Positions 34,114 to 64,000 of a stretch of DNA of 64,000 nucleotides are shown in pieces (the stretch's first letter is position 1; every line of letters begins with the position of its first letter). Under the pieces are notes generated by a model. That model worked only from the letters and a program-made list of their open reading frames with translations, was not told the origin of the DNA and ran no database searches. Position numbers and translations under genes: made by a program. The DNA comes from Haliotis cracherodii (taxonomy: Eukaryota): the NCBI RefSeq assembly GCF_022045235.1, contig NW_027266269.1:31558001-31622000 (forward strand), given 5' to 3'.

Positions 34114-34135
34114 ATGGTTAAAATCGTCATATGGG
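34114..34135 (+). CDS. Gene 2 first coding exon MVKIVIW
   Basis: accATGG start, G|GTAGGT donor; joins the 40961 and 42220 exons to form a signal peptide; an in-frame upstream ATG exists at 34048. Confidence 0.7.
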
Positions 34136-37100
34136 GTAGGTCAATTCGGTTTGGTAGAACATCGCGTAACATGACGGCAATTAATACTGAAGGTCTTATC
34201 ACCGCCATCTTAAATGAACATACAGTGTATATCTATATGTTTTGAAGTAGTCCAATGTCGAAGTATCAATAGGCAGTTTTTATACATGTCTAATTAATGT
34301 AAAATCAAAAAGATGAACTTGGACAGTATAGAAAATTAACTACATCATGTTAAAGAGTATTTCGTATGTAGGGACTATAAATAAGAGGTCATATTATACA
34401 CTAATGTAGATCTATTCCAATTGCTTGAGTACTTTTTTGTATTTTTTAACGATAGGATTCTGGTTCATTTATTTTTTCATGTTGTCTGGTGATATAATGA
34501 AAGAGACATCTCAAAGACCTGGAATGTGGTCATGTTTCCGACTATTAGTTAATGTCATTCTGAAGGGTCTCGAGCACCGTAACGTGACGTTACCATTTAT
34601 TACATGTCATGTCCCACCATCCATCATAAAACATGTCATCCTTCACTATGGTTATAGCGAAGTCCAACATCTCTCATACCACCTGGCTATAAACCAAAAG
34701 TTTCTGGGAACAAGGGAAACTCAGGACACAGGATATTTGATGGATAACAACTTCTTTATTGTTTGTAACGCCGTTTCAGAGCTATTTCTTGCCTTCCATG
34801 AGGTAAATACTGACTAAGCACATAAAGTTAATGTAATTATATATATCATGATATGATTCGGTCCTTTTGACCATTTCGTTCATATATATTTTTAAACTGA
34901 TAGAGACGATGAAGTAGCCAAGTGGTCGAAGCTTTCGTTCGTCAGGCCCGTGTTAGATTTCAGACCTGGGTGCAATGTGTCAAGCCCATTTCCGGCGTCA
35001 TTGGTACTGCTGGAACATTACGAAAAGCGGCGCAAAACAACACTCACTCACATAATTCAATTCGGTCCAGTGAAGCCACGCTAGTCAGTAGAGCCCACAT
35101 TCTGTGCCATTAGATCTTTGGACGTCTATATACATAATTAACATGATCATGATTTGGGATTAGTGAGTGAGTAAGTTGGGGTTTAACGCCGCATTTAACA
35201 ATATTCCTGTTACATCAAGCCGTGTCAGCTTATCATGAGCTTATTGTGGCACAGGTCTTAGACGTTTACCACTTTTGTGAAACCCACGAGCACGGGTATA
35301 GTGCTCACAAGCCTAGAAACCTAATCGGGCGAACCGGGATTCGAACCCCAAATCATATGATTTGATATGCAAAGCAAATTGCGGAGCCTGGATGACTGGT
35401 TATTCTGTTGCATTAACAAAGATAAACAAAATAGGCAAGGATAAACAAAAATGGCAAAGATAAACAAAAGTAAAATGAAGAGAAAAACGTGGCTGAAATG
35501 CCATAGTCAAAATATGTCAAATGTGCTGTAATCATTACACTACAAAACATATGAGAGTACGTCACGACAACAGAGGAGGCAATGAGTGTGAGACAGTCCT
35601 GTTTTTGCCGGCTTGAAACTATTGCCTGCAGTGTATGGTTGGATGTTGCATATCTGGCACGCCACTTGACAGAAGGCGGACAGTATTCGGCTCCTTAAAA
35701 TACGGACGTCATAGCCGACTATGCTTTGTTCGTGTTCCAAACTTGCTCGTGTTCCGCTCGTAATAAATACACGGAAGAGCCTGATAAATTCGCAATTCCA
35801 TGGAGGCAATAATGTGAATATACAAGTTATAACACTAATGAACAAACTGAACAATAAGTACATCATTTCGTGAAGGTTTAATGTACAGTGATATACGTTT
35901 ATAACGAACACGCTTATAACTGACGTGTATTACGAACCTAATTTCTGGTTCCTGCCATTTGCTGTAAAGAGGTTGTATATTATAACGAACTACGGTTATA
36001 ACGAACTAAAATTCGGGGTTTAACAGTTTATACATTCGGGGTTTAATGTATCTGTAATTGTGTTAAGTGTCGCAAAAATGGAAAATCAATTGAACTACAA
36101 TGACAGCGACAAAGGATGGCAAGTGACACAATACATTCCACGCTCCATGACAACAGCTCTCTGTACTCAAACCACTGGTAATCACGTCCTGTGTTTTCAC
36201 ATTACACATACGCTGTCAACTTCACGACACCATCGCCGTAATGTCAGTTATATCGTGTGTACACATGTTGTTATAGAATGTATGAACCACAAACATAGGA
36301 CCTTGTTTATCATACTATTAGTTAAATCACTACCATAGGACAATCACATTATGGCCTTGTTTCCTTTAGTTTTATGATGTATACACTACCACCGTGGTGT
36401 ATTTTATAGTTCTACAAGGTATAACCCAGCACCTTAGAACCCTGTTTATTATAGTTCTACAATGTATACAGCACCACCACAGAACTGTGTTTATAATAGT
36501 TCTACAATGTATGCAGCACCACCATAGAACCATGTTTATTACAGTTCTACAATGTAAAAAGTACCACCATAGAACCATGTTTATTATAGTTCTACAATGT
36601 ATACAACACCACCATAGAACCATGTTTATTATAGTCCTACAATGTATACAGCACCACCAAAGGGGCTTGTCTATTATCATTGTACAGAGTATAAACCAAA
36701 AAACATAGGACCTTGTTTTTAATAGCTCTCGATGTATAAACAACCCACATAGGACCTTGTTTATAATAGTTCTCGATGTGTAAAAAAACCTACATAGGAC
36801 CGTCTTTATTATATTTATCGATGTGTAAAAAACCTACATAGCACCTTCTTTATTATAGTTCTCGATGTGTAAAAAACCTACATAGGACCACCAACATAGG
36901 GCCCTGTTTACAGTAGAGAAACAACAACTATAAGACAGTGTTTATTAAACAACAACTAGATATACTTGCGCTTCTCAATTCTGTTAATGTGTAAAAATCC
37001 AACTTTGATATAAAGGTACACAATTCTACAAATCAAAGTTGGGACCGAGTCCAAGGTTCCAGATAGCTCACTGCATTTTGTCTCGAATTCGAGATACGCG

Positions 37101-40100
37101 GGTACATTAACATTTATCTACATAGTGAGGTTTTCGGGACAGGAAAATAGTTTAGAAATATCAATACTTTCGAGATAACATTGTTCGAGATAACAAGGTT
37201 TGACTGCAGTTTCAACAATGTATATTCCAGCAATACAGGATTACGTGTACAAGTATCTTACTTGTACAATGTATAAACAGTTGTTTGATAGTTTGTTGTT
37301 AAACGCCTAATTTAGAAACATTTTCCTATATGGCGGTCGTATGTAGAACCTTCTTTATTCCAGTTGGATAATAATAGGTCCTTGTTTATCATAGTTGTAG
37401 AATTCTTAAAGAGACACAATAGGTCATTGTTTGTTATAGTTATAAAATGCATAAACCACCTCAATATGAACCTGTTTATGACAGTTGTAGAATGCATAAA
37501 CCACCTCAATATGAACCTGTTTATGACAGTTGTAGAATGCATAAACCATCTCAATATGAACCTGTTTATGACAGTTGTAGAATGCATAAACCACCTCAAT
37601 ATGAACTTGTTTATGACAGTTGTAGAATGCATCAACCACCTTAATATCAACTTCTTTATGACAGTCGTAGAATGCATAAACCACCTCAATATGAACTTGT
37701 TTATGATAGTTGTAGAATGCATGAACCACCTCAATATGAACCTGTTTATGATAGTTGTAGAATGCATAAACCACCTCAATATGAAACTGTTTGTAACAGC
37801 TGTAGAATGCATAAACCACCTCAACATGAACTTGTTTATGACAGTTGTAGAATGCATAAACAACGTCAATATGAACCTGTTTGAAACAGCTGTAGAAAGC
37901 ATCAACCACCTCAATATGAACCTGTTTATGACAGTTGTAGAATGCATAAACGACCTCAATATCAACTTGTTTATGACAGTTGTAGAATGCAAAAACCTCC
38001 TTAAAATACACCCGTTTCTGACAGTTGTAGAATGCATAAACCATCCCAATATCAACTTCTTTATGACAGTTGTAGAATGCATAAACAACTTCAATATGAA
38101 CCTGTTAATGACAGTTGTAGAATGCATAAACCACCTCAATATGAACTTGTTTATGACAGTTGTAGAATGCACAAACCACCTCAATATGAACCACTTTATT
38201 GTTCGTGTAGTATGCAAAAACCACCACTATAGGTCCTAATTTATTATTATTGTACCATACATAAACCACCACAATAGGACCGTGTCTTGAACCATGCATA
38301 AACCACCAGTATAGGCCTTTGTTTATGATAGTTGTAGAATCCATAAACCACCACAATAGGGCCTTGTTTATTATTCTTGTAGTATGCATAAACCTACACA
38401 ATAGGGCCTTGTTTTTTATTCTTGTACCATGCATAAACCACCACAATAGGCTCTTGTTTATATTTCTTGTACCATGCATAAACCAGCACAATAGGTCCTT
38501 GTTATTTTTCTTGTACCATCCATAAACCACCACAACAGGTCCTTGTGTATTATTCTTGTAAGAGGCGGTCGGGTAGCCTAGTGGTTAAAGCGTTCGCTCG
38601 TCACGCCGAACACCTGGGTTCGATTCCCGACATGGGTACAATGTGTGAAGCCCATTTCTGGTGTCCCCCGCCATGATATTGCTGGAATATTGCTAAAAGC
38701 GGCGTAAAATCAAACTCACTCACTCACTATTATTCTTGTACTATGCATAAACCACCACAATAGGTCCTTTTTTTATTATTCTTGTAGTATGCATAAACCA
38801 CCACAATAGGGCCTTGTTTATTATTATTCTAGTATGCATGAACCACCACAATAGGACCCTGTTTATTTTTCTTAAACCGTGCATAAACCGCCACAATAGG
38901 CCTTTGTTTATTATTCTTGTAGAATGCATAAACCACAACAATAGGACCTTGTTTATTATTTTTGTAGTATGCATAAACCACCACAATAGGCCTTTGTTTA
39001 TTATTCTTGTACCATGCATTAACCTTCACAATAGGGCCTGGTATATTTTTCTTGTAGTATGCTTGAACCACCACAATAGGGGCTTGTTTATTATTCTTGA
39101 ACGCTGCATAAACCAACACTATAGGCCTTTGTTTATTATTCTTGTACCATGCATAAACCACCACAATAGGCCTTTGTTTATTATTTTTGAAGTATGCATA
39201 AACCACCACAATAGGGCCTTCTTTATTATTCTTGTACCATGCATAAACCACCACAATAGGCCCTTGTTTATTATTCTTGTAGTATGCATAAACCACCTCA
39301 ATAGGACCTTGTTTATTATTCTTATAGTATGCATAAACCACCACAATAGGCCCTTATTTATTATTCTTGTAGTATGCATAAACCACCTCAATAGGACCTT
39401 GTTTATTATTCTTATAGTATGCATAAACCACCACTATATGCCTTAGTTTATTATTCTTGCAGTATGCATAAACCACCACTATAGGTCATTGTTTATTATT
39501 CTTGTAGTATGCATAAACCAACACAATAGGACCTTGTTTATTATTCTTGTAGTATGCATAAACCAACACAATAGGACACCTTTTATTATTCTTGTACCAT
39601 GCATCAACCACCACAATAGGTCATTGTTTATTATTCTTGTAGTATGCATAACCCACCACAATAGGACCCTGTTTATTATTCTTGTAGTATGCACCACAAA
39701 AGGACCCTGTTTATTATTCTTGTAGTATGCATAAACCACCAAAATAGGTCATTGTTTATTATTCTTGTAGTATGCATAAACCACCACAATAGGACCCTGT
39801 TTATTATTCTTGTAGTATGGATAAACCACAACAATAGATCCTTGATTATTATTCGTGTAGAATGCATAAACCACCACAATAGGACCTTGATTATTATTCT
39901 TGTAGTATGCATAAACCACCACTATATGCCTTTGTTTATTATTTTTGTACCATGAATAAACCACTACAATAGGGCCTTGTTTATTATTCTTGTAGTATGC
40001 ATAAACCACCGCAATAAGACCTTGTTGATTATTCTTGAAGTATGCATAAACCACCACAATAGGACCTTGTTGATTATTCTTGAAGTATGCATAAACCACC

Positions 40101-43100
40101 AAAATAGGGCCTTGTTTATTATTCTTGTAGAATGCTTAAACCACCACAATAGGCCTTTGTTTATTATTCTTGTAGTATGCATAAACCACCACAATAGGAC
40201 CCTGTTTATTATTCTTGTACCATGCATAAACCACCACTATGGGCCTTTGTTTATTATTCTAGTAGTATGCATAAACCACCACAATAGGACCCTGTTTATT
40301 ATTTTTGTAGTAAGCATAAACCACCACAATAGGTCCTTGTTTGTTATTCTTGTAGTATGCATAAACCACCACAATAGGATCTTGTTGAATAATCTTTGAG
40401 TATACATAAACCACCACAATAGGACCCTGTTTACTATTCTTGTAGTATGCATAAACCACCAAAATGGACCTTGTTTATGATAGTTGTAGAATGCATAAAC
40501 CGATACTACATGAATTTGTTTATGATAGTTGTAGAATGCATAAACCACCACAATAGGACCTTGTTTATTATTCTTGTAGTATGCATAAACCACCACAATA
40601 GGATCTTGTTGATTAATCTTGAAGTATGCATAAATCATCACTATATGCCTTTGTTTATTATTCTTGTACCATGCATAAACCACAACAATAGGACCCTGCT
40701 TACTATTCTTGTAGTATGCATAAACCACCAAAATAGAATCTTGTTTATAATAGTTGTAGAATGCATAAACCGATACCACATGAATTTGTTTATGATAGTT
40801 GTAGAATGCATAAACCTCCACAATGGGCCCTTGTTTATAATTCTTGTACCATGCATAAACCGACAGAGCATGAACGTGTTTATTATAGTTTTACAATGTA
40901 TAAACCTCCCCCACATAATCCTGTTTATTATTTATTCATTTTTCCTTTCCTTGTTTTCAGCTCTGGTGTCGACATGTTTGACAGGTAGATATGAAACATA
41001 TTGTCTTTGTGATTGAAGGTTACTAATAGCTTAGACTGTGTTTTATCACTTTGAACTGCGATTCATTGATTGTGCATGTGCCAAAGATTTAACTGAACTA
41101 AACTACCGGGCAACAGAAAGTATGCACCATGTTTGACGGTGGCTAATTAACCTGAAACAAACAAGAAATGGTTATCTGATGGTGATGTATGAGATGTGTA
41201 TCACTGTGGTTTGGGACTTTCGACGACTGTTTTCAGCCTAGTAACTTTTTTGTAACGTTTGTAAAGTTTTGATCAAATTCAATTTCCATGACTATGCTTT
41301 CTTTTGCCTGGCTGTGTATATAGCTTGAACGCGTTAATGTAAGTCTTTGCCGTATTACCTATAAAAAATGATAAATTGAAACGTTGTGTGAATAAGATGC
41401 GTTATTATCTTCAGCGTCGAACACGAGACAATTAAAACAAAATTATACAAAATTACACAATTTCCTAGCTTTTATTGTATGCTACACGTGTAACGATAGA
41501 AATACTCAAACATTATAACACAACACATTATTTTTAAACATGTTTTGGGGAGAATTATGAGGACCCGAGGAGATGTTATTCTAAATACATTCAAGCACGA
41601 AAAAACTCAACAAGACTGTATGGCCAGAGGGCTGACTTCAACTATCCAACAGTCAACTTTCTCTTTATGTTGAATATCATTCCAGCAGCACTTGGGTGTC
41701 TGCATTACACAACTTATGAAGCACAGTCGAAGATTTCAAAGGACGCCTTACGACTCAAACGTTGTTTGATCTGGGTTACAACATTCAAACGTTTTATAGT
41801 CGATATGAGGAGGTCATTCCTGATTTGAAGCATCAGTAATAAAACTATTATTATAATCATAAGAAATATATGCTACAATCAGACCCCACTGTACAATTCC
41901 GACTTTATCATGAGCATGTACATTTGAATCACTACACAATAGTGATGATAGCAGGTTATAGTGATGATCTAGGGGAACATGTCCTGCACCACCAGGGACG
42001 CTGGTCACAAACGCATGCAGAGGCAAGTCAATTTTTCACCGGAAAAAAACACAGGAACGTATAGTACAAGACAAACGTGGGAATGGCATCAGATATCGAA
42101 ATGTCCTCTACATGTTTGTAATACACTTTTTGACGCTCTTTGAAATCTTTGGGGAACGAGCATGATTGAATTTACCCGAAGAGTTATGAAATATATTCTT
42201 GCTGTCTCTGTTGTTGCAGGTCTGGTGGAAGCTCAGGGAGGCTGTAAGTATAATCATCAGATGAAATCAGGATGCTCAAATAGAAGCTTTATACCACTCA
42301 ACTTTGGAAAGACAAATTATATATTTCCCATAATATCAAAAAATATGTCAAGTGTATATTTATGCAAAAATCATATGACTTATCTCATTACCCCTATCAA
42401 AATGTTAGTTTTAAATATCTAAATGAAATAATGCAAGGTCGTCATGTCACAAAACTAATAAAGGCAGTTGATGACAGAAACGTACTTATATCAAACCTTA
42501 AAATGCTTATTTAATGATAATAGATTTGTAGCTGTGTAACTATTTCTAAGCGGCAACAAAACAGACGCGATGAAAACATTTTGTACAAAAAAGTAAGAAT
42601 ATTGTAAATGTTGAATGGGTACTCACCCTGCTTTTTCTGATATTAAATTAATTGTGTTTTCTTTCATACAAGCGCCGACTATTTTAATTTTCATGAGGCA
42701 GCTTTTGAAATATATTATGGGTCATTTACAAACAAATAGATACCATACATGAAAGGGACAAGGTCCTAAAATACAGGAGATGCAAATCCAGATGATGTGG
42801 AGTCAGTAAATAGAAAGTAATGCCAAGAACAGTTCAAAGAATGAAGAAAACAATGACAACGTGAAAATACAATGTCTGTTTTGATTTAGTAAATAAAGCT
42901 GTAATGGCATCTCCAACACAGCCGACCTCGATCACCAACCACAGTGTAAGGTTCTCGTGAGCTATATTTACAACTCAAACGTCGGGGATGAAACATGAAA
43001 CTGCCCTTTCTGCCCGACAAGAAAAGCCTTCTGATACATAGCTTCATGCCTACCACCATCCAAAGGACTAACATCCCCCTTCAAGTAGCTTCAGGGGTGT

Positions 43101-43582: not shown

Positions 43583-43623
<41 letters not shown>

Positions 43624-46600
43624 CTCTCTCTCACTCTCTGTCTCTCTATCTCTTTCTCTCATAGAGAAGTATGACATAGACAACTTTTTATGGATCTTGA
43701 GCTTTTACTTTCCTNNNNNNNNNNNNNNNNNNNNNNNNNNNNNNNNNNNNNNNNNNNNNNNNNNNNNNNNNNNNNNNNNNNNNNNNNNNNNNNNNNNNNN
43801 NNNNNNNNNNNNNNNNNNNNNNNNNNNNNNNNNNNNNNNNNNNNNNNNNNNNNNNNNNNNNNNNNNNNNNNNNNNNNNNNNNNNNNNNNNNNNGAGAAGT
43901 ATGACATAGACAGTTCTATCATCAGTTGTTTCGAATCCATTTCAGATGATACTATTAGTAAATATCGTAAGTGTTAAATTACTTTGTATATGATGTACAA
44001 TGGGTTTTGTTTTGAAACACGATCTCTTGCCGTATAGAAATGTGATGCTGTAATGTTTTCAGTGTTCGCCTCCTAGAATAGGCCACTAATATAGACTGTA
44101 GTTCCCCTCCAGAGGTTACCTGGGAATAGTTAGATGTAGCTGCTGACATTTTGAACACTTGTATATTTACCATCAATATTATGACATATAATATAATATA
44201 TGATTATTATGAACTCCCATCCTAGCTACCCTCCATACAATATCTGTTATTTAGTCAGCTTTCACGACACACAGTTGTTTACTCTGAAAATGTGAGGTGA
44301 GGTGAAATTGGGTTTAACGTCGGGTCCAAAATTATTGCACTTATATAGCGACGTGCATGTACGTGTGTGTGTTTGTGTGGCTGCTGGTACTAGTCCGGAC
44401 TGATGCCAATTTATAGTGCTAGCTCACTGATATACCATGCCGCAGTTTAACATGAATACCCCACTCAGACACAGTATACTGACTCCGAGCCGACCAGTCC
44501 TTGTTTTAGCCCCTTAATGTCGAGCGCCAGACAGGGTAACAACAAGTACCATCTTTTGACGTCTTTTGGTATGAAGAGGCCGGGGATCGAACCCCGGACC
44601 TTCCGCTCTCCGGGCGGACGCTCTACGTTAAACCCCATTTCACCTCACCTCATAGAACAAGACTGACAACACCTGGAGAAACCAATGCCACCCGGTGTAC
44701 GTGATGAAACATGACGTCAGAATCTACCCCAGAAACTGTTGTACTGGAAATACCCAGTCCGTGTCTCTTGTATCGTTTCTAGCGAAGCTTTGGAACAACT
44801 AATTGTATTGACCTACTGCATAGTCGAACTCCAAATAGTGAATTAGTAGTTTATAAATAACAACTCCTATTATTTAGATTATTGGGTTGTTTGTAATGTG
44901 TAGTGTTTTTGTCTTTCTCAAAATTGTGTTTGTGGCCATGTTCATGAACGTGTTTGTGATTGTATTCATGAACTTGTTTGTGATCGCGTTCATGAACTTG
45001 TTTGTGATCGTGTTCATGAACGTGTTTGTGATCGTGTTCATGAACGTGTTTGTGATTGTATTCATGAACGTGTTTGTGATCGTGTTCATGAACGTGTTTG
45101 TGATCGTCTTCATGAACGTGTTTGTGATTGTATTCATGAACGTGTTTGTGATTGTATTCATGAACGTGTTTGTGATCGTGTTTATGAACGTGTTTGTGAT
45201 AGTGTTCATGAATGTTTTTGTGATTGTGTTTGTGTTCGTCGTTTTCATCTCCCCCTTCTTTCTCCAGGGAACAGTTACTTTCCACGTTCGGGGTATAACG
45301 CCCAATGGCCGAGGAACAATTATATGAGTAATGAGACAGCCCCAGTCTGTGTACTGTAGATAGATTTACCCTTGTCTTGCAATGCACTCGATCACGTGCT
45401 GGCTCGAGCTCAAAACCACACTGGATACACCGCATTTTGTTGATCAGCCATGAATATTTACAGTTATTTTCGGCGAGAATCAACAGCTTGAACGTCTGCA
45501 ATGCAAGAGCGATGGGATACCTTACGCCTGTTGATATACAGTTGATATATCTATGCTTACCCTAAATACAGGTTTCATAAAACAGAACATTTATCAACCG
45601 AAAAAGAAAGTATATACTTGAAAATTAAATTTGATATGAAATTCTAAACGATACCAAAACTTTACTTGGCCGAAAACAGTCACCTTCACAGCGCACACAA
45701 CTAGGATATCCGTATCAAATACCACCATCGAATACCAATTTCTTGTTTCATTTTATCTACCTTCAATCATGAGTATATACTTTCTTTTCCCCGGCAGTTT
45801 ATATCAGTGAACAGTAACTTCGGCCAAAAAATAATTCGTTTTATAAAGAGACCTATTCATGTAAATTATGATCGAATAGGCTCTTGAATACTGTATCCAG
45901 GGAAGCGTTATTAGAATACCCTATCCCCATATGTGTAGATCCTATATTATAATCTAATGTGCATGTTAGATACAAGTATTCATATTCTGCATGTTAGTCT
46001 CACACAAGTTTCATGCCATACAACTAATTTATCCCTTCTTTTTTTGCGATCAAACACAACATATTTAACCGTTTCTTGAACTCCCTTGAACTGTAACCTC
46101 AACATTGATTAATGTCGCCACCACACCATTCGAGGTCACGCATGTCAGCCCATGACCTTCAAGATGAAAATATGACCTTGACCTTTTTCAACATTTTCAT
46201 ACAACTGACAAAGTAGTTATTTTATGTGTTTTATGAGTTTATCGCTAGTGGGCAGTTTGTGAGGAATACGATCTAATGTCCCCGTGGGGGAGGTTCCGGG
46301 TGAGAATTGGTCCCCTGGTCCCCCGCAACTTATGTTGGTCGTGAGAGGCGACTTCATGGCTCGACTATGACGTCGAAGACCCGGGTTCGATTCCAAACAT
46401 GGGTACAATGTGTGAAGCCCATTTCTGGTGTCCCCCGCCGTGATATTGCTGGAATATTGCTAAAATCGGGGTAAAACCATACTCACTCACTCACTCATTG
46501 TGACTATGATGATGGTGTGTCATCGTACCCGACAGTGTGGGTCTATGCTCATAATATCAATCACTGGATCGTTTAGTCCGGACTCGACAATTTACAGACT

Positions 46601-52600: not shown

Positions 52601-55600
52601 ATGTTACGGTGATATAAACAAATTAGTTTGTGATATCTCTAATGTATTTAAGATATCATTAAACATTTACCATCATACAGTACATAAATATATTAGAAAT
52701 AAATTCAAAATATCTTAAATTCAATTCAAGATATCTTGAAAAAGGTTATACATATCCGCAAATGCATGACAGATATATTTAATTCAATTAGAGATATCTT
52801 TAATTCAATTAGAGATATCTTTAATTCAATTAGAGATATCATTAATTCTTACCGTTTCTGATATCAAAATTTCAATTAAAGATATCATTAATAATTTTGA
52901 TGATATCTTTATGTCAATTATTGGTATCAGTATTCTAATTAAAGTAACATTATTAATGTAACATCTTTAATAATGACAACAATTGAAGATATCAATAATT
53001 AATCATTGTATCTGTATTTTAGTAGTGTCGCATAAGTGTCGCAATAGTGTCATAATTATGTAGCAGTCGTGCCGCATTTGTGTCGCATAAGTGTCGTAGT
53101 AGTGTCGAAGAAGTTTCATAATTATTTGACAGTAGTGTCGCAGTAGTTTCGCAGTAGTGTCATAATCATGTCGCACTAGTGTCACAGTAGTGTCGCAGTA
53201 GCGTCGTAGTAGTGTCGTAGAAGTGTCGCATTAGTGTCACAGTAATGTCGCAGTAGTGTCATAATTATGTCACAGTAGTGTCGCAGTAGCGTCGTAGTAG
53301 TGTCGTAGAAGTGTCGCATTAGTGTCACAGTAGTGTCGCAGTAGTGTCATAATTATGTCACAGTAGTGTCGCAGTAGTGTCGGAGTAGTGTCGTAGTAGT
53401 TTCGCTGTAGTGTCATAATTATGTTACAGTAGTGTCGCAGTTGTGTCGTAATTCTGGCGTAGTAGCGCCGCATTAGTTTCATAATTATATAACAGTAGTG
53501 TCGCATAGGTGTCGCATTTGTGGCGCGTTAGTGGCATTATTATGTAGCAGTAGTTCCGCATTAGTGGCGCATAAGTGGCGCATTAGTGTCGAAGTCATTT
53601 TCATGATTATGTAGCAGTGATGCCGCATTAGTGGCTGAATTATGTAACATTACTGTCGCAGTATTGTGATAATTATGTGGTATTATTGTCGCAGAAGTGT
53701 CTTATTATGCAGCAGTAGTGTCGCAGTAGTGTCATAATTATGTAGCGGTAGTGTCGCAGTGGTGTCATAATTATGCAGCAGTAGTATCACATTAGTGTCG
53801 CATATGTGTCGTAGTAGTGTCGAAGTAGAGTCGCATTAGTTTCATGATTATGTAACAGTAGTGTCGCATTCGTATCTCAGTAGTGTCATTATTATGTAGC
53901 AGTAGTGTCGCTGTAGTGTCACAGAAGTTTAAAACGTATGTTACAGTAGTGTAGCATTAGTGTCTCATATGTGTCGTAGTAGTGTTGAAGTAATGTCGCA
54001 TTAGTTTCATAATCATGTAACAGTAGTGTCGCATTAGTGTCGCATATGTGTCGTATTAGTGTCGAAGTAGTGTCGCATTAGTTTCATAATTATGTAACAG
54101 TAGTGTCGCATTCGTATCTCAGTAGTGTCGTTATTATGTCGCAGTAGTGTCTCAGTTCCGCCGGCGCTATGCCGCAGTAAGACAGACCTTTGACTTTAAC
54201 TCAGATTAGGTATAGAACTTATATTTGCAAACTGTAGCAATCCACACACCGATGCAGACCTTATGTTCTAAAGCACTCGGGAAATCATTGTCATTCTTTT
54301 CCTTCAAGCATATTCTCAATGGCAACAAGGTATGTTATCAACATTCCTTTGCCGTTGTTGTTGTCATGTGTGTATACATATATAGTATATATTTATATTT
54401 ATATATATATATGCTACAGTCAATGTGTAAAATGGTCAATCATTTTATTCCGTGTAAAACAGCAAACTAACAAACGATGTGAAAAATGACTGAACTCTTC
54501 ACTAAGCCAAATAAGAAAAACGCCTAAATATTTCAGTTATATAACTATATACCTGAAACATCTATCCATTTCATTTTGATAACGAATTCCTAACATATCA
54601 GTCTTTACTTTCATCAACCAGTGACCGAAAATGATAGGATTAAAAGAAAGTCAGTGTATTTTTTTAATACTCCTAGCATAATTGATCTAGTTTGAGGTTT
54701 TAACCCTTTTGTATTTATCTAAAAAAATTGATATAATGGGCAGATTTTTCAGTCAAAGTGTAGAATTAATGCAATATTTGGGCATCTTTCGTCAAAAACT
54801 TCTGAGTATATCGCATTTTACCCATTGACTGTTACATAGCATATACTGTAGCCTGTCGTGGTACAGCAACCTTGAGACACACCGCTTCCACACCGCTTCC
54901 ACACCGCGCACCGTCACAGAGCGTTGCCGTATCAGAACCTGTCATACAGTGATCACACGTAGCTCTATATGCTCATAGTGCCTTTATACTTCATATGCGT
55001 CTATCATTTTTATGTTAGTATTACTGCTTGCAGTGTGAACATAACAATACCATATATACATATCCATTAATCATGAGGTATTCAATTATCCAATGGCAGG
55101 TCGTTCATGTATGTATTCCTGCCTGACAATGACGTGTACAGTAAACTACGGTTATAGCGAATACGCTTATAACGAACTGACAGATATAACGAACTTACTT
55201 ATTTAGTCCCGACTATTTGCTGTAGTTATGCTGTATATATGCTTATAACGAACTACGGTTATAACGAACTAAAATTAGTAGTCCCTTTGAGTTCGTTGTA
55301 ACCGTAGTTTACTGTAGATGTAATACAATCTATACAATCTCCACATAACGATTAATTGTTTGATAATCAAATACCATCGCCACTAATCAGTAACCCTCAA
55401 CGCAGTTTATGTCATAATCTGCTCCGACAAGGAATGCGCATCCCATGTGCATGTATTGGAATATTTACATAATTATAAGAATATATTTAACATAATATTT
55501 AATCAATGAAAATGTGTGGATGGCAAATAAGATAAGCAGAAACCATTCAAAATTGATACAGTCACAAGATAATATTTCAGACAGTTACAAAGCAAAATAG

Positions 55601-58600
55601 TGAGTGAGTGAGTGAGTGAGTTGGATTTAACGCCGCTTTTAACAGTATTCCAGTCATATCACGGCGTGTGAGATTAATGTGGGAGGAAAGCTCCAAGTGA
55701 TGCTGTTCTCAGACATTAACCACTTCGGTGTAATCCACGAGCACGGTTATGGTGCTGACAAACCTAGAAATATAATCGGGGCGAACCGGGATTCGAACCC
55801 ACAATCAAAGATTGCTGGCGTACCCAAAGGACGCAACTCTGCACAGCGAATTTCGGGGCCGAAGACGGCTGATCAGCAACCCTGCAGAGTCCTTCGTTTG
55901 GATGACGTCGGCTGGCCTGAAAAGTGAAACAGAAGGCCTTCTGTTTGCTGCTCAGGACCAGTCACTTCCCACTCGAAACAGTCCATTTGTGATTTTGCAT
56001 CCAACTGTAAATGTGAAATGTAGATTATGTAATATTTTAATGAGACTGTCCAACACATTGTGAGTGGATGTCCAGCTTTGGCACAAACACAGTATCTTAA
56101 GCGTCATGATGTGGATCGATCATAAGTGGATCGGGCTTACCTAAAATTATTGTCAACTCGTCGTGTTATGGTTCACATATATTTCCCGAAATATTATATA
56201 TATATATTTCAGATGTAATTTAAAGCACATCTGTACATGCGGAATTATACAGTATGATTGAACACATTTAACTGTGCCTTGGGTATATTTTTAGATGCAA
56301 GACATATGTAAAATCAAAAGTTATTTCTGAGGGATTCCGTGAGAAAGAACTTGAAATCATACGCGCATTCTGATTGGTTTGTCGTATTTTCGCACATAAC
56401 ATTCATCGATAGGGGACGAGCCTTCTTGCAGGTTACGGAAAGGGGCGAGTGGTGACGAATGCAGCACAACACAGTAGCTATAACCAGCACAACAGACACA
56501 AATGCAGTGCCCTCAGGGGACAGGCATTGGTTGCGAGGGGATTATTTTAACCCGTGATCCAAACGGATGTATATCCATAACGTGATAGTATTTATTCCGT
56601 ATATATAACTCGGGCTATATCAATGTATAGAACGCACAATAGCTATATATATCTATATATACATACATGCATGCGCATTTGTCTGTAATAGTTAAAATAT
56701 GTACTCATGAATATTAGCACGCAATACATCTAAGCAAGCTATATTCAACTAATATATTTCGTAACAGGGGTCAATTATATCAATAAACTGTTTGTTAATA
56801 ATTAAGTTGAATAGCCTTAATTATGAGAAATTAAAAGTTGGATATACGTGTAAATTATAAACGATATGATAAACGATTAATATGAATGAAAACAACCCAA
56901 TTAATTTGATTTTGTGACGGTTAACACAGTTTAATATGTACTCCAAATAATCTCTGACCTCTGACCTTTGACCAGTCATGCAGGGAGGCTTTCACCTATC
57001 GTCAATGCCTGATCCAGCTGACCCGCCTGATGGTAACCCTGTGACCTTGACATAATAAATCATGTATTCGGTAACCTTGAACTTGGAAGTATCACATAAC
57101 TGGTTTCCATGACCTCCAATGTTACATATATGTTTGCTTTATGCTGCTTTTATATTGATTAAACATATTAACAGATTTAAATGTAAACATATGTCCAGTC
57201 ATAACCCAGTGAGCTAAAGTTCGTCGAGACGTCAGAAGTGCGAGATATAACCTTGTGATTCTGTGAATACTGGAAACTGTGAAAGTAGTGTTATGTCCAG
57301 GTTATATAAAGTAGATTAATACTGACTTTGTGTAGCGGGGCGTGGAGTCATCCCACTGATGACATCCTTACCTTGTCAGCTTGCTGACAGGGTTAACCTC
57401 TGATCAGAAGGTCCATGGTTCGAATCACATCACAGGACTAGGAAGTTTTATGTCACCCACATTGGCACCAAACGTGGGGCTGAGCACGTTCATATTAAAT
57501 TTGATCAAAATAAGTCTCAGTACCCAATTTTGCGGCCTTGACGTGCCTTCTGTTGACGGGGTTCTCCCTGCTCAAATTTAATATGAATGTAGCGGCAATA
57601 AAACTTCCGAGACCCGTGATGGGATTCGAACCACGTACCTTCTGATTCGAGGTTGGACGCCTTGTCCACATAACGAAGGTAAGGATGTCATGCGTGGGGT
57701 GACTCCTCGTCCTGCTTCGTTTGTTTCGGTCGTCAGTGACTCCACGGTTTAGTTCCCATTTCATCTGATTTCAAGGATGTGTAGTAAATCAATCTTAAGG
57801 GCTTTCTTCTTCATCTTCAGTTCCCGCACCTGCGCAACCATGGGGGCAACAAAGTAAGTCCGTCATTTTCTTCAAGGGGAGACATGTATCATTTTCATTC
57901 ATAATTCATATTTTCCATTTAACTTATACAGTAGCATGCTTAACAGTTAACGTTTCATAATCTCACTTAGTCTCCCGCATAACTTTCATATTCTTGAACA
58001 TTCCTTATGGATATATATATTCCTTACAAGCATATACTCATCATTCATTGTCGTGGTATACCTTGTCTGTGAGACTAACATCTAATTTTCAAGCATGATA
58101 CGGCGTGTCTGTGTCTCCCAAGAGACACTAAATATGGATCCATGAGCGATCACCCACCCCACCCACCCTTTGACTATACAGGTTGTACGTCAAAAGATGC
58201 TTTACCATCATAAGATCAGACAGTTATGAATTAGATAATGGATATTAACGCATCAATACAATTACATCTCCCTTAAGCTGTTTTGTTATCATCTAGTTCA
58301 GAATTTTTAAAGGTTTTGAAAATAGGCCCCGTGTGAACGTTTCCTACCGCGATCTGAAATAGATTCTGTTTGAAATGTTAGTCACACTGGGAGGTGGCAA
58401 GGTTTCACTCTTCCCCGATGTATTTTATAATCGTACGTTTAGTTGATGAAACAAAACTCCCGTTACCTGGATGGTTGCCCGATTTGTGAACCAACTGCTT
58501 TCTTTTAATGCAATGTTTAAATAGTCATATCCTAGGAACATAAAGTTATTATTTCAGACGGACCAGCATGGCAACAAGGCCCGCCTACAGCAGATCCTGC

Positions 58601-61600
58601 AGATACTCCCGGTCAGTTGTTGGCCCCTTGGCTCGGCAGGGCATTTCTTATACTACTCCAACCATTCTAAGGATGCTTGTTTCCTACCCATCACATGGAC
58701 ATACCTGACTAAATGTAGCATTTAAATGCGGATTAACATAATGGATATAAGATGGTTGATAAAAGAAACTAAAAATCCCCTCAAATAACCATTTTCCTTT
58801 GATAACTTTTTTAGAAAGTACATATATATCAGAATGGGTCGACATCATCGTACCCATACAGAATCCAACTTGGCTTTGTAATTCCGAATGATTTTTATCC
58901 TGAAGTTATCCTGAACTATGATCCTTAGCAATGGTTGAGTAGTATGATCATGTTATGGGGCAATGGGTAATTAAATAAGGGTCAGAAGGGGCTATATGAT
59001 GAAGGTGGAGCGGAACAAAGCTATTAAGATATTGCTTCTGTAATCACACTTTGGTACGTACGACTCGATGGTAGTCGGTTGGTTGATGGCTCACCCGAGG
59101 ATCTGCCAAATATATTAACTATATCCATCTAACAGGTATACAGTCATTCACATCTTTCTTTTCCTCCAATCACTGGCATGTCCGATCTGTTCCCATTCCT
59201 TTCGTTAGGGGAATGTTGACATTCATTGTCAATCCAAGCATGTGAGACGTATGCATTTCGTCATCATGATGTCATATTCACCACGTATGCATTACGTCAT
59301 CATGACGTCATATTCACCACGCATGCAATACGTCATCATGACGTCATATTCACCATTCTCCGGATGCATGTTATAACTTATATATCATCTGTATCTGGCA
59401 TGACTGAGTGAATGTTGATTACCGCCGCGACCAGCAATAGTCTAGTTATTTCATGATGGTATGTAATGCATCATATCTGTACCAGACACAGTGACTGAAA
59501 GCATAAACACCAGTCCACTCCGTTGGGTCACGGTGACCCTCTTTGGTCGCATTTTACGAAAGGGGTACAGGAGACATTCTCCCTCTGAATCTCAAAGCAG
59601 ACTCCCTGTTATCGTTTTACACATAACTTAAGGACAAGGCATGTTAACATCGTGAAGATCCAGGGTAGAATAAGTCTTCAGCAACTCATGCTTGTTGTAA
59701 AAGGCGACTATGCTTGTCGTAAGAGGCGACTAACGGGATAGGGTGGTCAGACTCGCTGACTTGGTTCATGCATGTCATCGTATCTCAATTGCGTAGATCG
59801 ATGCTCATGATACCAATCACTGGATTATCTGGTCCAGACTCGATTATTTACAGACCGCCGTCATATAGCTGGAATATTGCTGAGTGCGGCGTTAAACAAC
59901 AAACAAACAAATAAAAACATGCCAGTCACCGGATTGCCATGTCAAGAATCGATTATTTACAGACTGACGTCATATAGCTTTAATATAGCTGATTCAGGCG
60001 TTAAACAAAGACAACAATTACATGTGTTTAGTTATTCATGCTGTTCTGTTTTAAGCTGTTGGCGCCCCGGGGTCACCAGGAAGCAGCACCTCCCTTCTTA
60101 TGTCAGCCCTTTTACCTAATTACCCCAGCGCGGACAAATATAAACCAAACGCAGGTATAGACCCCTTATCCAGAGCTACCTTACCGTATCCCCGTGTCAA
60201 CGCACACCATTATTGACAATAGCTATGGCACTATCTATATGCAGACATGTATAATTTTGATAACAGTTCCAGAGTTAATATGCACATGCATGCTCAAGGT
60301 AAATGCAGATCGCGTTTGTCGCTGACGATACCTGAAGGGGACATACCTGTGTATTGTAATATCCCGTTTTTGTATGTTAAATAATAATAATCATATCTCA
60401 TTTGCAAACATATAAATGACGTCACAGAGGGAGGGATTTTCACATTTTGACTTCGTGACACAAATGGTGACTTTAGCGATGCTTTCTGTCATGTATCCAA
60501 ACTATATCTGCTTCTGTAGCTGTTTCCAAAACTAAAGCCGGACAACCAGCTCCAACAGCTTCCAAGGCTCCATCACCGGCACTCCCATCAGCACCAACTG
60601 CTTCACCCTCTCTGTCACGTGGTCTCGGCGGCAACATGCATAACTACCCTTCCCCACCTACCCCCAGGCCAAGCTCTGGGGGTGACCACCATCCCAGTAA
60701 ACCCAAACCATCTTCCATGTCACGTCCCATAAGTGACTACCTACCCAGCAACGCCCAACCATCTTCCATGTCACGTCCCGTGAGTGATTACCTGCCCAGC
60801 AACGCCCAACCATCTTCCATGTTACGTCCAGTGAGTGATTACCTACCCAGCAACGCCCAACCATCTTCCATGTCGCGTCCCGTAAGTGATTACCTCCCCA
60901 CCAACGCCCAACCATCTTCCATGTCACGTCCCGTGAGTGATTACCTACCCAGCAACGTCCAACCATCTTCCATGTCACGTCCCGTGAGTGACTACCTACC
61001 CAGCAACGCCCAACCATCTTCCATGTCACGTCCCGTAAGTGATTACCTACCCAGCAACGCCCAACCATCTTCCATGTCACGTTCAGTGAGTGACTACCTG
61101 CCCAGCAACGCCCAACCATCTTCCATGTCACGTTCAATGAGTGACTACCTACCCAGCAACGCCCCTTCCATGTCACGCTCCGTCAATGACTATCTACCCA
61201 GCAATCCCTCGTCATCACCTTCCGTGTCACGTCCTGCCAACGGCTACCCATCCAGCGACCCTTACGCAGGTACCCACCACATACGATGCCATGACGTCAC
61301 ACGTCGTCAAACTTGCATGCAAAGATCTTTAAACTGAAATGTTATTTAAAGATTAAACCAATGTGTCATGTTACTTGAAACAATGTTTTCAGTTTGTATT
61401 CCTTTATTTTCTAACATGTGTCAGTTAGATTATAGTCCTAGATAATGCTAATCGTGTGTTGTGTGTAATACATGTAGTTAGACAACTGTAGACAATGTAT
61501 TTAGTGGACCATCTGAATTTATATGTCTTAACTCTCTGTGAGATTAATCACTGAGCATACTGCACAAGGACACTATTTCCTATCAACAGAATTATCATTT

Positions 61601-64000
61601 TAATATTACAGAAAAAAACGTTTTCATTCTCAATAATGTCAGCTGAGTATAAGACACTAAATATCGATGTGTACCTTTGATGTACTTTTCGATGCATGCA
61701 CCTCTGTAGAAACATATTGAGAATGTTTTGTACTTCTTTTAAAGTGCGTAGTTTCCTCAATGACCCTACCAATGGAGCAGCAGTCATTGCCATCCGTCAG
61801 ACATCGCCATAGCTGTTTTTGATGCAGTTCATGTAATTGATGTGATATAAACATAACATCGTGCATTATTCATTAACGCTGTGGGCGCTATTCTAACATT
61901 CCTATATGCTACAAGAGGTTGAGGTTGGACTAAACCACTTACACGGATAATCACCCTGTAATATTCACTGGGTATCTACACACGAGTGTCTCTGTAACGT
62001 GAAACATGTACCGTGCTCTACACGGCTACATATCCACTTGAGTTCAGTATGTTTTTATGCCACTGCAGTATACTGGATAATAAATGCCCGGTGGTCACGC
62101 CCACATCTATCGTTTATTTAATGTAATACAAATAAAATGAAGTTTAATATTTTTTACTTAAGATCCCAAAACAATAAGCACATGTTGTACTACGTTACAT
62201 TCAGATCGAATAGTTTTGTACAGTAAAGTACGTTTATAACGAACACGCTTATAACGAACTGACCGATATAACGAACTTATTTGTAGTCCCGACCATTTGT
62301 TGTATACATGGTTTTTTACAAGATACAGTAAACTACGGTTATAACGAACACGCTTATAACGAACTGACCGATATAACAAACTTATTTTTAGCCCACCATT
62401 TGTTGTATAAATGCTGTATATATGCCTATAATGAACTACGGTTATTACGAACTAAATTAGGGGGTCCCTTTGGGTTCGTTATAACCGTAGTTGACTGTAT
62501 TGTCATGTGATGTTGTTTGTTTGTTTGTCATGATGACTAATTATTGCTGTTGACATGTTACAGCTCAACCAGGCGGAGGCGCTCAATGGCAAGGAGGCAA
62601 GTCTGTCACTGTTATAGAATCAGTGTTGTAAAGCGAGTATGAGTCTTTGCTGTGATATGATTGGCTAAGAACGTGATGAAATTGGATTCGGAATATCCTA
62701 GACTATTCATTGCGCATGGATATTTTCCCCTCAGATCAAAACTTGAAGGATGAGCTATTCTAATTATTTCTATTCCGATGGGTCATTGTTTACTAGAACA
62801 ACTGGGATTTGGTTTGTTTATTTTCAGTTCAGTTATGACTCAATCATCTGACGTCATCAACTGTCTCATGACGTTCACATATAGAGAAAGTGCTTCAGAA
62901 AATAACTGATAGCTTTTGCATATTACAATGTCGATAAACACGATGTGGTTTTAAGATATCTTGGGTTTGTTTACTGTTCGGTGACTAGAAATTTTACTAC
63001 TTGAAATTTTCGGGTACAGAGTATTCACAAAAAACCTCAAATGTGAAAATGCATAATGTTTATATCCTGAAAAAGCAATGTACGTACAAACACAAACGGT
63101 TTAGCCGGGAAGTATAGCAATATTATCCTAAAAAATTAAAGATAACATTTCTGTTTAAGAGGTGGAAGTTCAGCACTGTATATGATTGCGTTATCATCGA
63201 TTATAAACTAACAGTTTTTTGTAACTGTTCCATGTTCCATGTCCCTTTTGAGTACAATCTTTAGGTCATAATGCCAGGATAAAACAGGAATACTGTTCAA
63301 AGCGGCGTTAAACCTAACTAACTCACTCACTCTTTAGGTCATAATGCCAGGATAAAACAGGAATACTGTTCAAAGCGGCGTTAAACCTAACTAACTCACT
63401 CACTCTTTAGGTCATAATGCCAGGATAAAACAGGAATACTGTTCAAAGCGGCGTTAAACCTAACTAAATCACTCACTCTTTAGGTCATAATGCCAGGATA
63501 AAACAGGAATACTGTTCAAAGCGGCGTTAAACCTAACTAAATCACTCACTCTTTAGGTCATAATGCCAGGATAAAACAGGAATACTGTTCAAAGCGGTGT
63601 AAAACCCAACTCACTCACTCACACACTATTCAGGTCATAAAGCCGGGTTATAACTGGAATACTGTTCAAATCGGCATTGAACCCTACTCACGCACTCTTC
63701 AGGCCATAATGTCGTGATATATCTGGAATAATGTTCAAAGTTTAAACCCAACTCACTCACTTACTCGTGATGTCTTATGATGTGACCCAGTACGTCTGTC
63801 CATCTACAATAACATACAGCGTTCCCAAATAATCCCCAGGTATTGCTGCTATCCCAGACATTTATTAATCTCAGATCCACGTCATATGTAAATAAGGGAA
63901 TATATACTGAAACAATTGAGGGTGCTTAACTTAATTCGATGTGTTTATTTTTACACGTACTGTCCATGTTAACTTTGATATCCTTCTCCCTCAGGTTATC
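34114..64000 (+). CDS. Gene 2: secreted Pro/Trp/Gln-rich repetitive low-complexity protein (matrix/adhesive/shell-protein-like); 3' end beyond window
   Basis: Exons 34114-34135, 40961-40984, 42220-42243, 45268-45327, 47472-47507, 49105-49191, 49445-50419, 51223-51255, 54309-54329, 57821-57853, 58558-58611, 60056-60154, 60520-61269, 62564-62596, 63995 onward. All introns are phase 1 and all internal exons are multiples of 3. The spliced N-terminus MVKIVIWALVSTCLTGLVEA|QGG is a typical signal peptide, and accATGG is a strong start context. Confidence 0.85.
36270..40930. repeat. 42-bp satellite array with sequence-variant sub-blocks (gene 2 intron 1)
   Basis: Unit about TTGTTTATTATTCTTGTAGTATGCATAAACCACCACAATAGGAC; variant block 37430-38200 (GACAGTTGTAGAATGC..CTCAATATGAAC); interrupted at about 36950-37360 and by a SINE at 38562. 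Confidence 0.95.
38562..38727 (+). mobile_element. SINE family A inserted into the 42-bp satellite
   Basis: TSD tattattcttgta at 38548-38560 and 38728-38740. Confidence 0.92.
40961..40984 (+). CDS. Gene 2 24-nt micro-exon ALVSTCLT
   Basis: Long pyrimidine tract tttcctttccttgttttcAG, AG|GTAGAT donor. Confidence 0.78.
42220..42243 (+). CDS. Gene 2 24-nt micro-exon GLVEAQGG (signal cleavage VEA|Q)
   Basis: ctgttgttgcAG acceptor, T|GTAAGT donor. Confidence 0.8.
43715..43893. other. Assembly gap
   Basis: Run of N; duplicated sequence on both sides suggests a collapsed repeat. Confidence 1.
44293..44651 (-). mobile_element. SINE family D (tRNA head, Meta/MESC-like core, (TCACC)n tail)
   Basis: Minus strand: GGTTCGATCCCC B box, CATACCAAAAGACGTCAAAAGATGGTACTTGTTGTTACCCTGTCTGGCGCTC core, GACGTTAAAC..(TCACC)n tail; other copies near 4590, 4820, 12818 (-), 19000, 30300 and 48355. 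Confidence 0.8.
44925..45240. repeat. 24-bp minisatellite GTGTTCATGAACGTGTTTGTGATC
   Basis: About 13 units running into the polypyrimidine tract of the exon at 45268. Confidence 0.95.
45268..45327 (+). CDS. Gene 2 exon WNSYFPRSGYNAQWPRNNYM
   Basis: cccccttctttctccAG acceptor; A|GTAATG donor (weaker) gives 60 nt, phase 1-1. Confidence 0.72.
   Translation, partial: GTVTFHVRGITPNGRGTII
46281..46660 (+). mobile_element. Old SINE-like family B copy interrupted by a truncated family A SINE (about 46370-46497)
   Basis: B head, then A body and tail, then B body resumes; gactatga is repeated around the insert. Confidence 0.8.
46775..46952 (+). mobile_element. SINE family A
   Basis: Consensus match with long (ACTC)n tail; further decayed copies near 8745, 17511, 27800 (-) and 34905. 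Confidence 0.88.
47472..47507 (+). CDS. Gene 2 exon MPSQPMHNQWPQ
   Basis: ttctgattcAG acceptor, AG|GTAAGT donor. Confidence 0.82.
48261..48884. mobile_element. Nested insertion: outer MITE containing a family D SINE (48355-48628) and an inner Tc1/mariner-type MITE (48640-48816)
   Basis: Outer TIRs ta|CAGTGAAACCTCGTTA... and ...TAATGAGGTTTCAC; inner TIRs CAGTAAACTACGGTT / AACCGTAGTTTACTG with TA TSD. Confidence 0.8.
49105..49191 (+). CDS. Gene 2 exon APSGGEGHTASPPGSPYYGAQPPDLPDSL
   Basis: ctttgagcAG acceptor, AG|GTAATA donor, 87 nt. Confidence 0.8.
   Translation, partial: HLLEVKVIPPHPRGHHTMEPNPPTSLTV
49445..50419 (+). CDS. Gene 2 large exon, about 25 x 11-aa WQPPPD(G/K)PP(P/Q)(G/P) repeats
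   Basis: catttcAG acceptor, 975-nt open frame (ORF 49690..50430 frame), synonymous third-position variation between units, AG|GTTGGT donor. Confidence 0.92.
51223..51255 (+). CDS. Gene 2 micro-exon ANQRASPYQQP
   Basis: ctctctatttcattAG acceptor, G|GTAAGT donor. Confidence 0.78.
51496..51753 (+). mobile_element. SINE-like family B
   Basis: Consensus match. Confidence 0.9.
52430..53000. repeat. AT-rich degenerate repeat with recurring GATATC/AATTCAATT motifs (probable DNA-element interior)
   Basis: Repeated agatatcttaaattcaatt, with a 21-bp triplet at 52780-52845. Confidence 0.65.
53020..54155. repeat. 11-bp-based satellite (AGTAGTGTCGC with ATAATTATGT variants)
   Basis: Direct periodicity. 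Confidence 0.93.
54309..54329 (+). CDS. Gene 2 21-nt micro-exon AYSQWQQ
   Basis: ttcttttccttcaAG acceptor, AG|GTATGT donor; W-Q-Q motif as in neighbouring exons. Confidence 0.72.
55139..55314. mobile_element. Tc1/mariner(pogo)-type MITE
   Basis: TIRs CAGTAAACTACGGTTA / TAACCGTAGTTTACTG, TA TSD, internal TATAACGAAC repeats; same family as 48640. Confidence 0.9.
55600..55868 (-). mobile_element. SINE family C
   Basis: Reverse complement copy; further decayed copies near 11845 (-), 19950, 23872 and 35161 (-). Confidence 0.88.
55885..56122 (+). mobile_element. Fragment of an R4/Dong-like non-LTR retrotransposon (CCHC zinc knuckle)
   Basis: SFVWMTSAGLKSETEGLLFAAQDQSLPTRN...KCRLC../ETVQHIVSGCPALAQTQYLKRHD with one frameshift. 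Confidence 0.8.
57343..57706. repeat. Foldback element with tRNA-Arg-like inverted arms
   Basis: 57343-57451 is an inverted copy of 57598-57706; inner inverted pair ttcatattaaatttga / tcaaatttaatatgaa. Confidence 0.75.
57821..57853 (+). CDS. Gene 2 micro-exon VPAPAQPWGQQ
   Basis: ttcttcttcatcttcAG acceptor, A|GTAAGT donor. Confidence 0.85.
58558..58611 (+). CDS. Gene 2 exon NGPAWQQGPPTADPADTP
   Basis: ttatttcAG acceptor, G|GTCAGT donor. Confidence 0.83.
59248..59356. repeat. 36-bp tandem triplication rich in palindromes (ATGCAT, TCATGA, GACGTC)
   Basis: CGTATGCATTACGTCATCATGACGTCATATTCACCA x3. Confidence 0.85.
59651..59915 (+). mobile_element. SINE-like family B
   Basis: Consensus match; additional fragments near 2030 (-), 4423, 9090, 20735, 31585 (-) and 59920. 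Confidence 0.9.
60056..60154 (+). CDS. Gene 2 exon AVGAPGSPGSSTSLLMSALLPNYPSADKYKPNA
   Basis: ttctgttttaAG acceptor, AG|GTATAG donor, 99 nt. Confidence 0.8.
60520..61269 (+). CDS. Gene 2 large exon, about 10 x 17-aa PSSMSRPVSDYLPSNAQ repeats
   Basis: ctgcttctgtAG acceptor, 750-nt open frame (ORF 60636..61337 frame), 51-bp units with mostly synonymous differences, AG|GTACCC donor. Confidence 0.9.
62221..62497. mobile_element. Same MITE family with duplicated left end
   Basis: Left ends at 62221 and 62326, right TIR ending 62497, TA flanks; partial relatives near 33400-33575, 35880-36020 and 37090-37208. Confidence 0.85.
62564..62596 (+). CDS. Gene 2 micro-exon AQPGGGAQWQG with GC donor
   Basis: tgttacAG acceptor; AG|GCAAGT non-canonical donor preserves phase 1. 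Confidence 0.75.
63259..63767 (+). repeat. 73-bp tandem repeat derived from the SINE 3' tail
   Basis: Units at 63261, 63334, 63407, 63480 and 63553 plus two diverged units; each contains GGAATACTGTTCAAAGCGGCGTTAAAC..(ACTC)n. Confidence 0.92.
63995..64000 (+). CDS. Gene 2 next exon start (G)Y, truncated by window end
   Basis: tccttctccctcAG acceptor; only 6 nt visible. Confidence 0.55.

Follow-up and report, generated by a model that had tools for sequence, protein, structure and literature searches.

An abalone gene of the MRP type with exchangeable phase-1 repeat cassettes and a possible link between splice form and shell layer

The plus strand of a 64,000-nucleotide stretch of the Haliotis cracherodii genome (contig NW_027266269.1, positions 31,558,001 to 31,622,000; here the window, whose own numbering is used throughout) carries, from 34114 to 64000, the 5' part of a gene that extends beyond the window end. 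On balance we favour the reading that this is an abalone gene of the MRP type whose C-terminal domain, constant and Cys-rich, is combined with an arm of exchangeable phase-1 cassettes, an acidic WQPPP-repeat arm probably belonging to nacre and a basic Ser-rich arm to prisms. The identity of the gene and its alternative splicing are close to certain, while a layer-linked splice switch, taken alone, is an even call. The evidence comprises the exon structure and its phases, orthology to the Haliotis laevigata protein idb_4071 and to Haliotis rufescens isoforms, skip junctions in protein records, and the pattern of peptides in the shell layers. New here is that two large exons never occur together in four transcripts, are opposite in chemistry and, in the published peptide tables compared, show a reciprocal layer pattern. 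The open-access literature, to which the search was confined, yielded no description of how this gene is built or of repeat modules exchanged between shell layers.

Exon structure and splice forms

An earlier note on this DNA, made from the sequence alone, had proposed a 15-exon gene. Manual rebuilding reproduced those 15 exons on the plus strand between 34114 and 64000, with 14 introns, all phase 1, 752 stop-free codons, a single Cys (residue 13) and internal exons that are small (21–99 nt) except for a pair measuring 975 and 750 nt. Two exons had been overlooked, however: further symmetric phase-1 exons at 43946–43966 (21 nt) and 56976–57032 (57 nt) were found by means of orthologous proteins. 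The final model has 17 exons and 779 stop-free codons in the window; 16 of 16 introns are phase 1 and 15 of 15 internal exons are divisible by 3, which confirms and extends the uniform phase described in the note. No stop codon arises across the 136 ordered exon joins, and each join keeps the reading frame, as had been proposed.

The signal peptide is itself split over exons 1–3. It starts in the coding part of exon 1 (34114–34135), its core and the sole Cys codon of the window part lie in exon 2 (40961–40984, 24 nt), and the predicted cleavage region lies in exon 3 (42220–42243, 24 nt). Its prediction comes from hydropathy, which is at most 2.5 over the first 14 residues, with no hydrophobic segment later. 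RefSeq starts at an in-frame ATG at 34048, which would place 22 more residues in front of the signal peptide, but the sequence context is better at the ATG at 34114. The window part contains 27.5% Pro, 13.3% Ser, 9.3% Gln and 2.3% Met. Related W-Q-Q/W-P-Q motifs had been ascribed to the small exons in general; a W-[PQG]-[QRG] motif is present in 6 of the 13 small internal exons rather than in all of them.

On the sequence alone the phase claim is partly circular, because a generic splice-site score was non-discriminating (only two model exons were among its five plus-strand candidates) and symmetric open candidates were about equally frequent in phases 0, 1 and 2 (29, 30 and 30). Comparison with the orthologues takes this circularity away, as their residues at the junctions agree with those predicted by phase-1 joins of the window exons. 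For each donor and acceptor of the model there is at least one record that uses it, and the junction residue is the predicted one. Phase-1 introns make up a fraction of 0.30–0.40 of introns generally; at that rate the chance of 16 independent phase-1 introns would be 4e-9 to 4e-7, although independence is itself improbable.

The orthologues came from two sources. Among 8000 scored candidates, a search with exon 13 retrieved one protein, the H. rufescens ‘vegetative cell wall protein gp1-like isoform X10’, at 88% identity, and its cluster also contains X9 and X12 (XP_046380115.2, XP_046380116.2 and XP_046380118.2 are X9, X10 and X12). The automatic RefSeq name reflects composition only; these proteins are orthologous, lack the WQPPP block and fit combinations of window exons with 3–4 differences per 135–155 residues, with ∼97% identity between window and H. 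rufescens in the micro-exon peptides. The second source is idb_4071 of H. laevigata (Mann et al. 2018, PMC6003135, Table 1 and Fig. S2U), which shares the signal peptide, exons 5–8, 10, 11 and 14, the WQPPP repeats and a Cys domain. It was published as one uncharacterized sequence without gene structure; the window places the two repeat modules in a single gene, each as an exon. A search with exon 7 among longer proteins gave no match, a weak test for a sequence of such low complexity, and a protein search with the orthologue P0001 matched itself only.

Four transcript-derived proteins, H. rufescens X9, X10 and X12 (RefSeq) and H. laevigata idb_4071, were available for comparison. Seven of the 15 internal exons occur in all four: exons 2 and 3, exon 5 (47472–47507, 36 nt), exon 8 (51223–51255, 33 nt), exon 10 (57821–57853, 33 nt), exon 11 (58558–58611, 54 nt) and exon 14 (62564–62596, 33 nt), the last with a GC donor. 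Exon 15 begins at 63995 and is cut by the window end at 64000; past it lie the Gln/Pro region, which is also constant, and the 10-Cys domain. The other eight internal exons are variable and move largely as two blocks. Block A consists of exon 6 (49102–49191, 90 nt, or 87 nt via the tandem acceptor at 49105) and exon 7 (49445–50419, 975 nt, the WQPPP-repeat module), both carried by idb_4071 only. Block B consists of exon 9 (54309–54329, 21 nt), exon 9b (56976–57032), exon 12 (60056–60154, 99 nt) and exon 13 (60520–61269, 750 nt, a module of 17-residue SRPVSDYLP repeats), all present in the three H. rufescens isoforms, which are without exons 6 and 7, and absent from idb_4071. Exons 7 and 13 never occur together in these records. 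The remaining two variable exons are cassettes near the front: exon 3b (43946–43966) is used in X10 and exon 4 (45268–45327, 60 nt) in X9, X12 has neither, and idb_4071 also lacks both. Six skip junctions (3-4, 3-5, 3b-5, 5-8, 8-10 and 11-14) appear in the protein records. The free combinatorial use of any exon imagined in the earlier note does not agree with this division into constant exons and blocks.

We considered exon 7 as an alternative last exon and rejected it, as idb_4071 splices onward to exon 8; read-through past exon 7 reaches a stop after three codons, and no canonical poly(A) signal precedes exon 8. A further entry of PMC6003135, idb_4065 (723 residues), has peptides of exon 7 and of the constant part in common with idb_4071 as far as aa629 of the latter and, in the tables compared, none later; it is either longer in front or differently ended, possibly a second block-A isoform. 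When micro-exons were compared for signs of duplication, the best of 120 exon pairs reached a z of 4–5 against 200 shuffles, and self-BLAST gave exon-to-exon matches only within exon 7. An origin of the micro-exons by exon duplication is, from these comparisons, suggestive at most.

Several other features lie within the introns. Intron 1 is filled by ∼4 kb of a 45-bp minisatellite (36404–40928), which ends just before the exon 2 acceptor and into which a SINE-like element is inserted near 38563–38728. At 51755–51861 there is an exon-like sequence of 107 nt that has a good donor and weakly resembles exon 12. It contains an in-frame stop, comes immediately after an interspersed-repeat tail and is possibly a cassette exon disabled by insertion.

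The C-terminal Cys domain and the MRP family

Past the window, the H. rufescens proteins continue with a Gln/Pro region and then a domain with 10 Cys. The statement that the only Cys lies in the signal peptide is therefore valid for the window part alone, since the gene passes the window end and the orthologue ends in this domain, and the picture of a wholly disordered protein gives way to one with a conserved 10-Cys C-terminus.

The domain, of ∼100 residues, was tested by way of the orthologue P0001, since it lies outside the window. A search of 1.84 billion proteins with it returned six matches: the query, LOTGIDRAFT_173200, SNE40_007299, Patelloida shell protein 19 and two others (P0004 and P0008), which proved to be unrelated repeat sequences and were set aside. 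E values of the matches were 7.5e-22 to 2.3e-8, with a pairwise E of 6e-18. The relatives are MRP of Lottia gigantea (MRP_LOTGI, B3A0R7, Lotgi1|173200), SNE40_007299 of Patella caerulea and shell protein 19 of Patelloida mimula; domain identity is 35–38%, and all 10 Cys are invariant in the four-row alignment of abalone, Lottia, Patella and Patelloida. Lotgi1|173200, that is MRP_LOTGI, is reported to make up 1.43% of the Lottia shell matrix (PMC4094399; PMC3374290), and idb_4071 is the H. laevigata entry matched to MRP in the material of PMC6003135. A named relative thus exists where the earlier note recognized none.

The abalone protein and the MRP-type proteins have a common layout of signal peptide, low-complexity arm and C-terminal 10-Cys domain. 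The arm itself is unrelated in sequence to those of the MRP-type proteins, and it is not Met-rich: Met accounts for 2.3% of the window part and 3.8% of X10, as compared with 7.3–7.9% in Lottia and Patella and 3.7% in Patelloida. As the Patelloida member also has only 3.7% Met, a Met-rich arm does not define the domain family. Judged by the sequence of its Cys domain, the abalone protein belongs with the MRP-type shell proteins. No Pfam family scored above cut-off with P0001, with either large exon or with the Cys domain, a sequence search of PDB with the domain returned no matches, and a search of the ESM Atlas gave no usable match. A 10-Cys domain absent from the Pfam and PDB searches made here is now defined as common to abalone and limpets.

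Repeat modules and shell layers

The two large exons encode modules of opposite chemistry. The exon 7 module is 41% Pro and 7.7% Trp, with 19 WQPPP motifs and a pI of 4.3, while the exon 13 module is 27% Ser and 5% Tyr, with a pI of 9.6; for the window part of the two isoform classes the pI values are 4.3 and 9.0. Their distribution was followed in six nacre and four prismatic peptide tables from the supplements of PMC6003135, to which all the layer results below refer. In these tables idb_4071 is a major nacre matrix protein, detected in 6/6 nacre and 3/4 prismatic fractions. The guess of the earlier note that the gene encodes a secreted, low-complexity mollusc shell protein is thereby supported, and peptides of exon 7 are present in the shell, where the note had suggested looking.

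In the tables those peptides occur in nacre only: aa121–136 occurs in 5/6 nacre and 0/4 prismatic tables, and aa99–120 in 3/6 and 0/4. Conversely, the exon-13 motif was found only in prismatic-layer tables, under the entries Tri_20350, Tri_20347 and Tri_20348; Tri_20350, whose peptides match exon 13, occurs in 0/6 nacre and 3/4 prismatic tables. One of its peptides differs from X10 at the end of the exon-13 repeat solely by a two-residue gap. The authors file Tri_20350 as a separate, uncharacterized minor prismatic protein (0.001–0.002%; PMC6003135). File 18, the remaining prismatic table and by elimination soluble B, contains neither idb_4071 nor Tri_20350. Constant C-terminal peptides appear in both layers. 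Where full lists were compared, nacre soluble A had 22 idb_4071 peptides, two of them from exon 7, while all 12 idb_4071 peptides of prismatic insoluble A fell in the constant part, aa503–677. In-gel and filter digests are both represented in each layer. In the prismatic gels, Tri_20350 peptides occur only in slices 1–5, where idb_4071 peptides also peak; assuming slice 1 to be the top of the gel, this co-location is consistent with a single large polypeptide.

The two absences are of different weight. Scaled to two constant peptides, the expected intensity of an exon-13-type peptide in the nacre tables would be 2.7e7–1.3e9, and none is present. For an exon-7 peptide in the prismatic tables the expectation is 4e6–2e8, near the weakest peptide seen there (4e6). 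Since expected intensities are high in nacre and close to the weakest-seen level in prisms, block B can be taken with fair confidence to be absent from nacre, while the absence of block A from prisms is only suggestive.

Beyond that low expectation for block A, several points count against a layer-linked exchange. Tri_20350 is a fragment of 226 residues (its relatives have 255 and 332) with no peptide in common with idb_4071, and its link to this H. laevigata gene is therefore one of homology only. Its signal is small, at 2–7 spectra per table and 0.001–0.002%. Fisher values of 0.048 and 0.012 (file 18 excluded) are descriptive, the tables being non-independent fractions from few shells, and the reference mantle transcriptome derives from one H. 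laevigata x H. rubra hybrid animal. The splice forms were read from protein records of related species rather than from junction reads or transcripts of H. cracherodii, and the block swap is a comparison across species; when full-length records of a single species are compared, the variation is confined to exons 3b and 4. The RefSeq XP models, although built with RNA-seq support, are predictions, and at least nine more isoforms exist (X1–X8 and X11), some of which may hold both blocks. AlphaFold2 on the four-row alignment was unusable for the fold of the Cys domain (pLDDT 40).

These points lend some weight to an alternative that we consider possible though unlikely, namely that the gene is of the MRP type and alternatively spliced while its splice forms are not tied to a layer. 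Exon symmetry would then simply let a disordered linker gain and lose exons, and the peptide pattern would arise from sampling, modification or proteolysis. The few spectra for either variable module are in keeping with this, as is the finding that no peptide from the WQPPP repeat core was present in the 12 files searched, which indicates that detection of the arm is poor; the unlinked status of Tri_20350 and the possible decayed exon at 51755–51861, which suggests exon turnover, point the same way. Nevertheless, the pattern is reciprocal, the exon-13-type peptide is missing from 6/6 nacre tables despite constant peptides that are equally strong or stronger, and the window and H. rufescens share ∼97% identity in their micro-exon peptides.

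We give distinctly less credence to independent skipping of exons that would yield a large combinatorial mixture of isoforms, as in schistosome micro-exon genes (MEGs). Frame is kept at every join, the isoform labels in H. rufescens go up to X12, and exons 3b and 4 are each used singly or both omitted, all of which such a scheme would allow. Yet the seven constant exons and the joint movement of 6 with 7, and of 9 with 9b, 12 and 13, are at odds with it, and isoform classes with pI values as far apart as those given above are unlike the similar-sized, similarly charged MEG isoforms described in the parts of PMC4015677 consulted. That the exons come from more than one gene, or that a single isoform is made, which the earlier note had named as grounds for giving up its proposal, is very improbable even though several splice sites score weakly and the records come from other Haliotis species, as idb_4071 is a single sequence that contains the signal exons together with exon 7 and the C-terminal domain, and X9, X10 and X12 join those same signal exons and C-terminus to exon 13.

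Returning to the reading in which the arm is exchanged between layers, we suggest that mantle zones may splice blocks A and B alternately, so that the arm ahead of the Cys domain would be exchanged while the domain itself is kept. The 10 Cys may form a disulphide-bonded anchor for matrix or mineral, which would have been retained since abalone and limpets split. From general chemistry, and hypothetically, the Trp/Pro/Asp arm would be soluble, bind calcium and self-associate around aragonite tablets, and the Ser/Tyr/Arg arm would become part of the calcitic layer's insoluble framework through modification or cross-linking. In the fractions reported, idb_4071 forms 0.44–0.60% of the soluble and 0.09–0.18% of the insoluble nacre matrix, as against 0.09–0.13% of the insoluble and <=0.01% of the soluble prismatic matrix; an acidic soluble arm in nacre and a cross-linked one in prisms would fit this, because the protein is mostly acid-soluble in the former and mostly insoluble in the latter.

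It has long been asked how a single mantle can make both nacre of aragonite and a prismatic layer of calcite. Among the major shell proteins of H. laevigata, 86% are reported from both layers (PMC6003135); if shared proteins differ by layer-specific splice forms, catalogues at the level of the protein conceal the difference. We regard it as an evenly balanced proposition that one gene serves both layers by a splice switch, and hence that alternative splicing, not only gene choice, helps to set aragonite nacre against calcite prisms. The gene offers a direct test of this, with two natural isoforms that have the same anchor and opposite arm chemistry.

The upstream gene and other cassette genes

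Upstream on the plus strand, at 956–22574, lies a second gene, rebuilt with 16 exons and 546 residues, 41 of them Cys. It encodes a secreted protein with five Cys-rich modules and includes one large Pro/Gln/Thr exon (14357–14911). Ten of its introns are phase 1, five phase 2 and none phase 0; the borders between modules are all phase 1, and each Cys module is interrupted by an intron of phase 2. Its match in H. laevigata is the shell protein Tri_14507, which occurs in both layers according to the tables of PMC6003135, where the best match of Tri_14507 is Lotgidraft_173199, one number off the 173200 of MRP. Because the two numbers are consecutive, the pair formed by the upstream gene and MRP may be conserved in Lottia. 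Likeness between the Cys modules of the upstream gene and the MRP domain is weak, at 6.5 bits against a shuffle maximum of 5.3. At 19459–19898 on the plus strand, the 3' end and donor of one of its exons are repeated ∼7 times in tandem in the next intron, with a 60-bp unit. Another of its introns holds a 45-bp tandem array at 9489–10100 on the same strand, with an open frame of 203 codons for which no role as an exon was found.

Alternative splicing of shell-forming genes has precedents. It is tissue-dependent in Lymnaea (PMC6007483), splice variants of shell genes are known (PMC5850307), and the perlucin variants of H. laevigata are products of a spliced shell gene (PMC4019660). In the text examined, the Lymnaea and perlucin cases include no swap of repeat modules between shell layers (PMC6007483, PMC4019660).

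The likeness to micro-exon genes drawn in the earlier note is superficial. In common with schistosome MEGs, as described in the sections of PMC4015677 consulted, the abalone gene has a signal peptide, small symmetric exons and exon skipping. Micro-exons, however, make up to 75% of MEG coding sequence (PMC4015677), whereas here exons of <=36 nt account for 10.6%, and those of <=100 nt for 26%, of the coding sequence in the window; MEG products are small and alike in size and charge (PMC4015677), while the abalone orthologues have 646–713 residues and, for the window part, pI values of 4.3 and 9.0. With these two defining traits absent, the abalone gene is not a micro-exon gene of the schistosome type.

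A closer parallel is offered by vertebrate tropoelastin, also a secreted low-complexity matrix protein, in which, according to the portions of 10.1101/2024.12.03.626628 consulted, all splice sites are phase 1:1 and cassette splicing tunes material properties. The same phase 1:1 design is present in the abalone gene at 16/16 introns in the window. There is no homology between the two in Pfam or protein searches, and where tropoelastin alternates hydrophobic with lysine cross-link domains, the abalone gene has two large modules of opposite chemistry. By this analogy the likeness is one of convergent design, and the abalone gene would be a mollusc parallel to the all-phase-1 cassette organization of tropoelastin.

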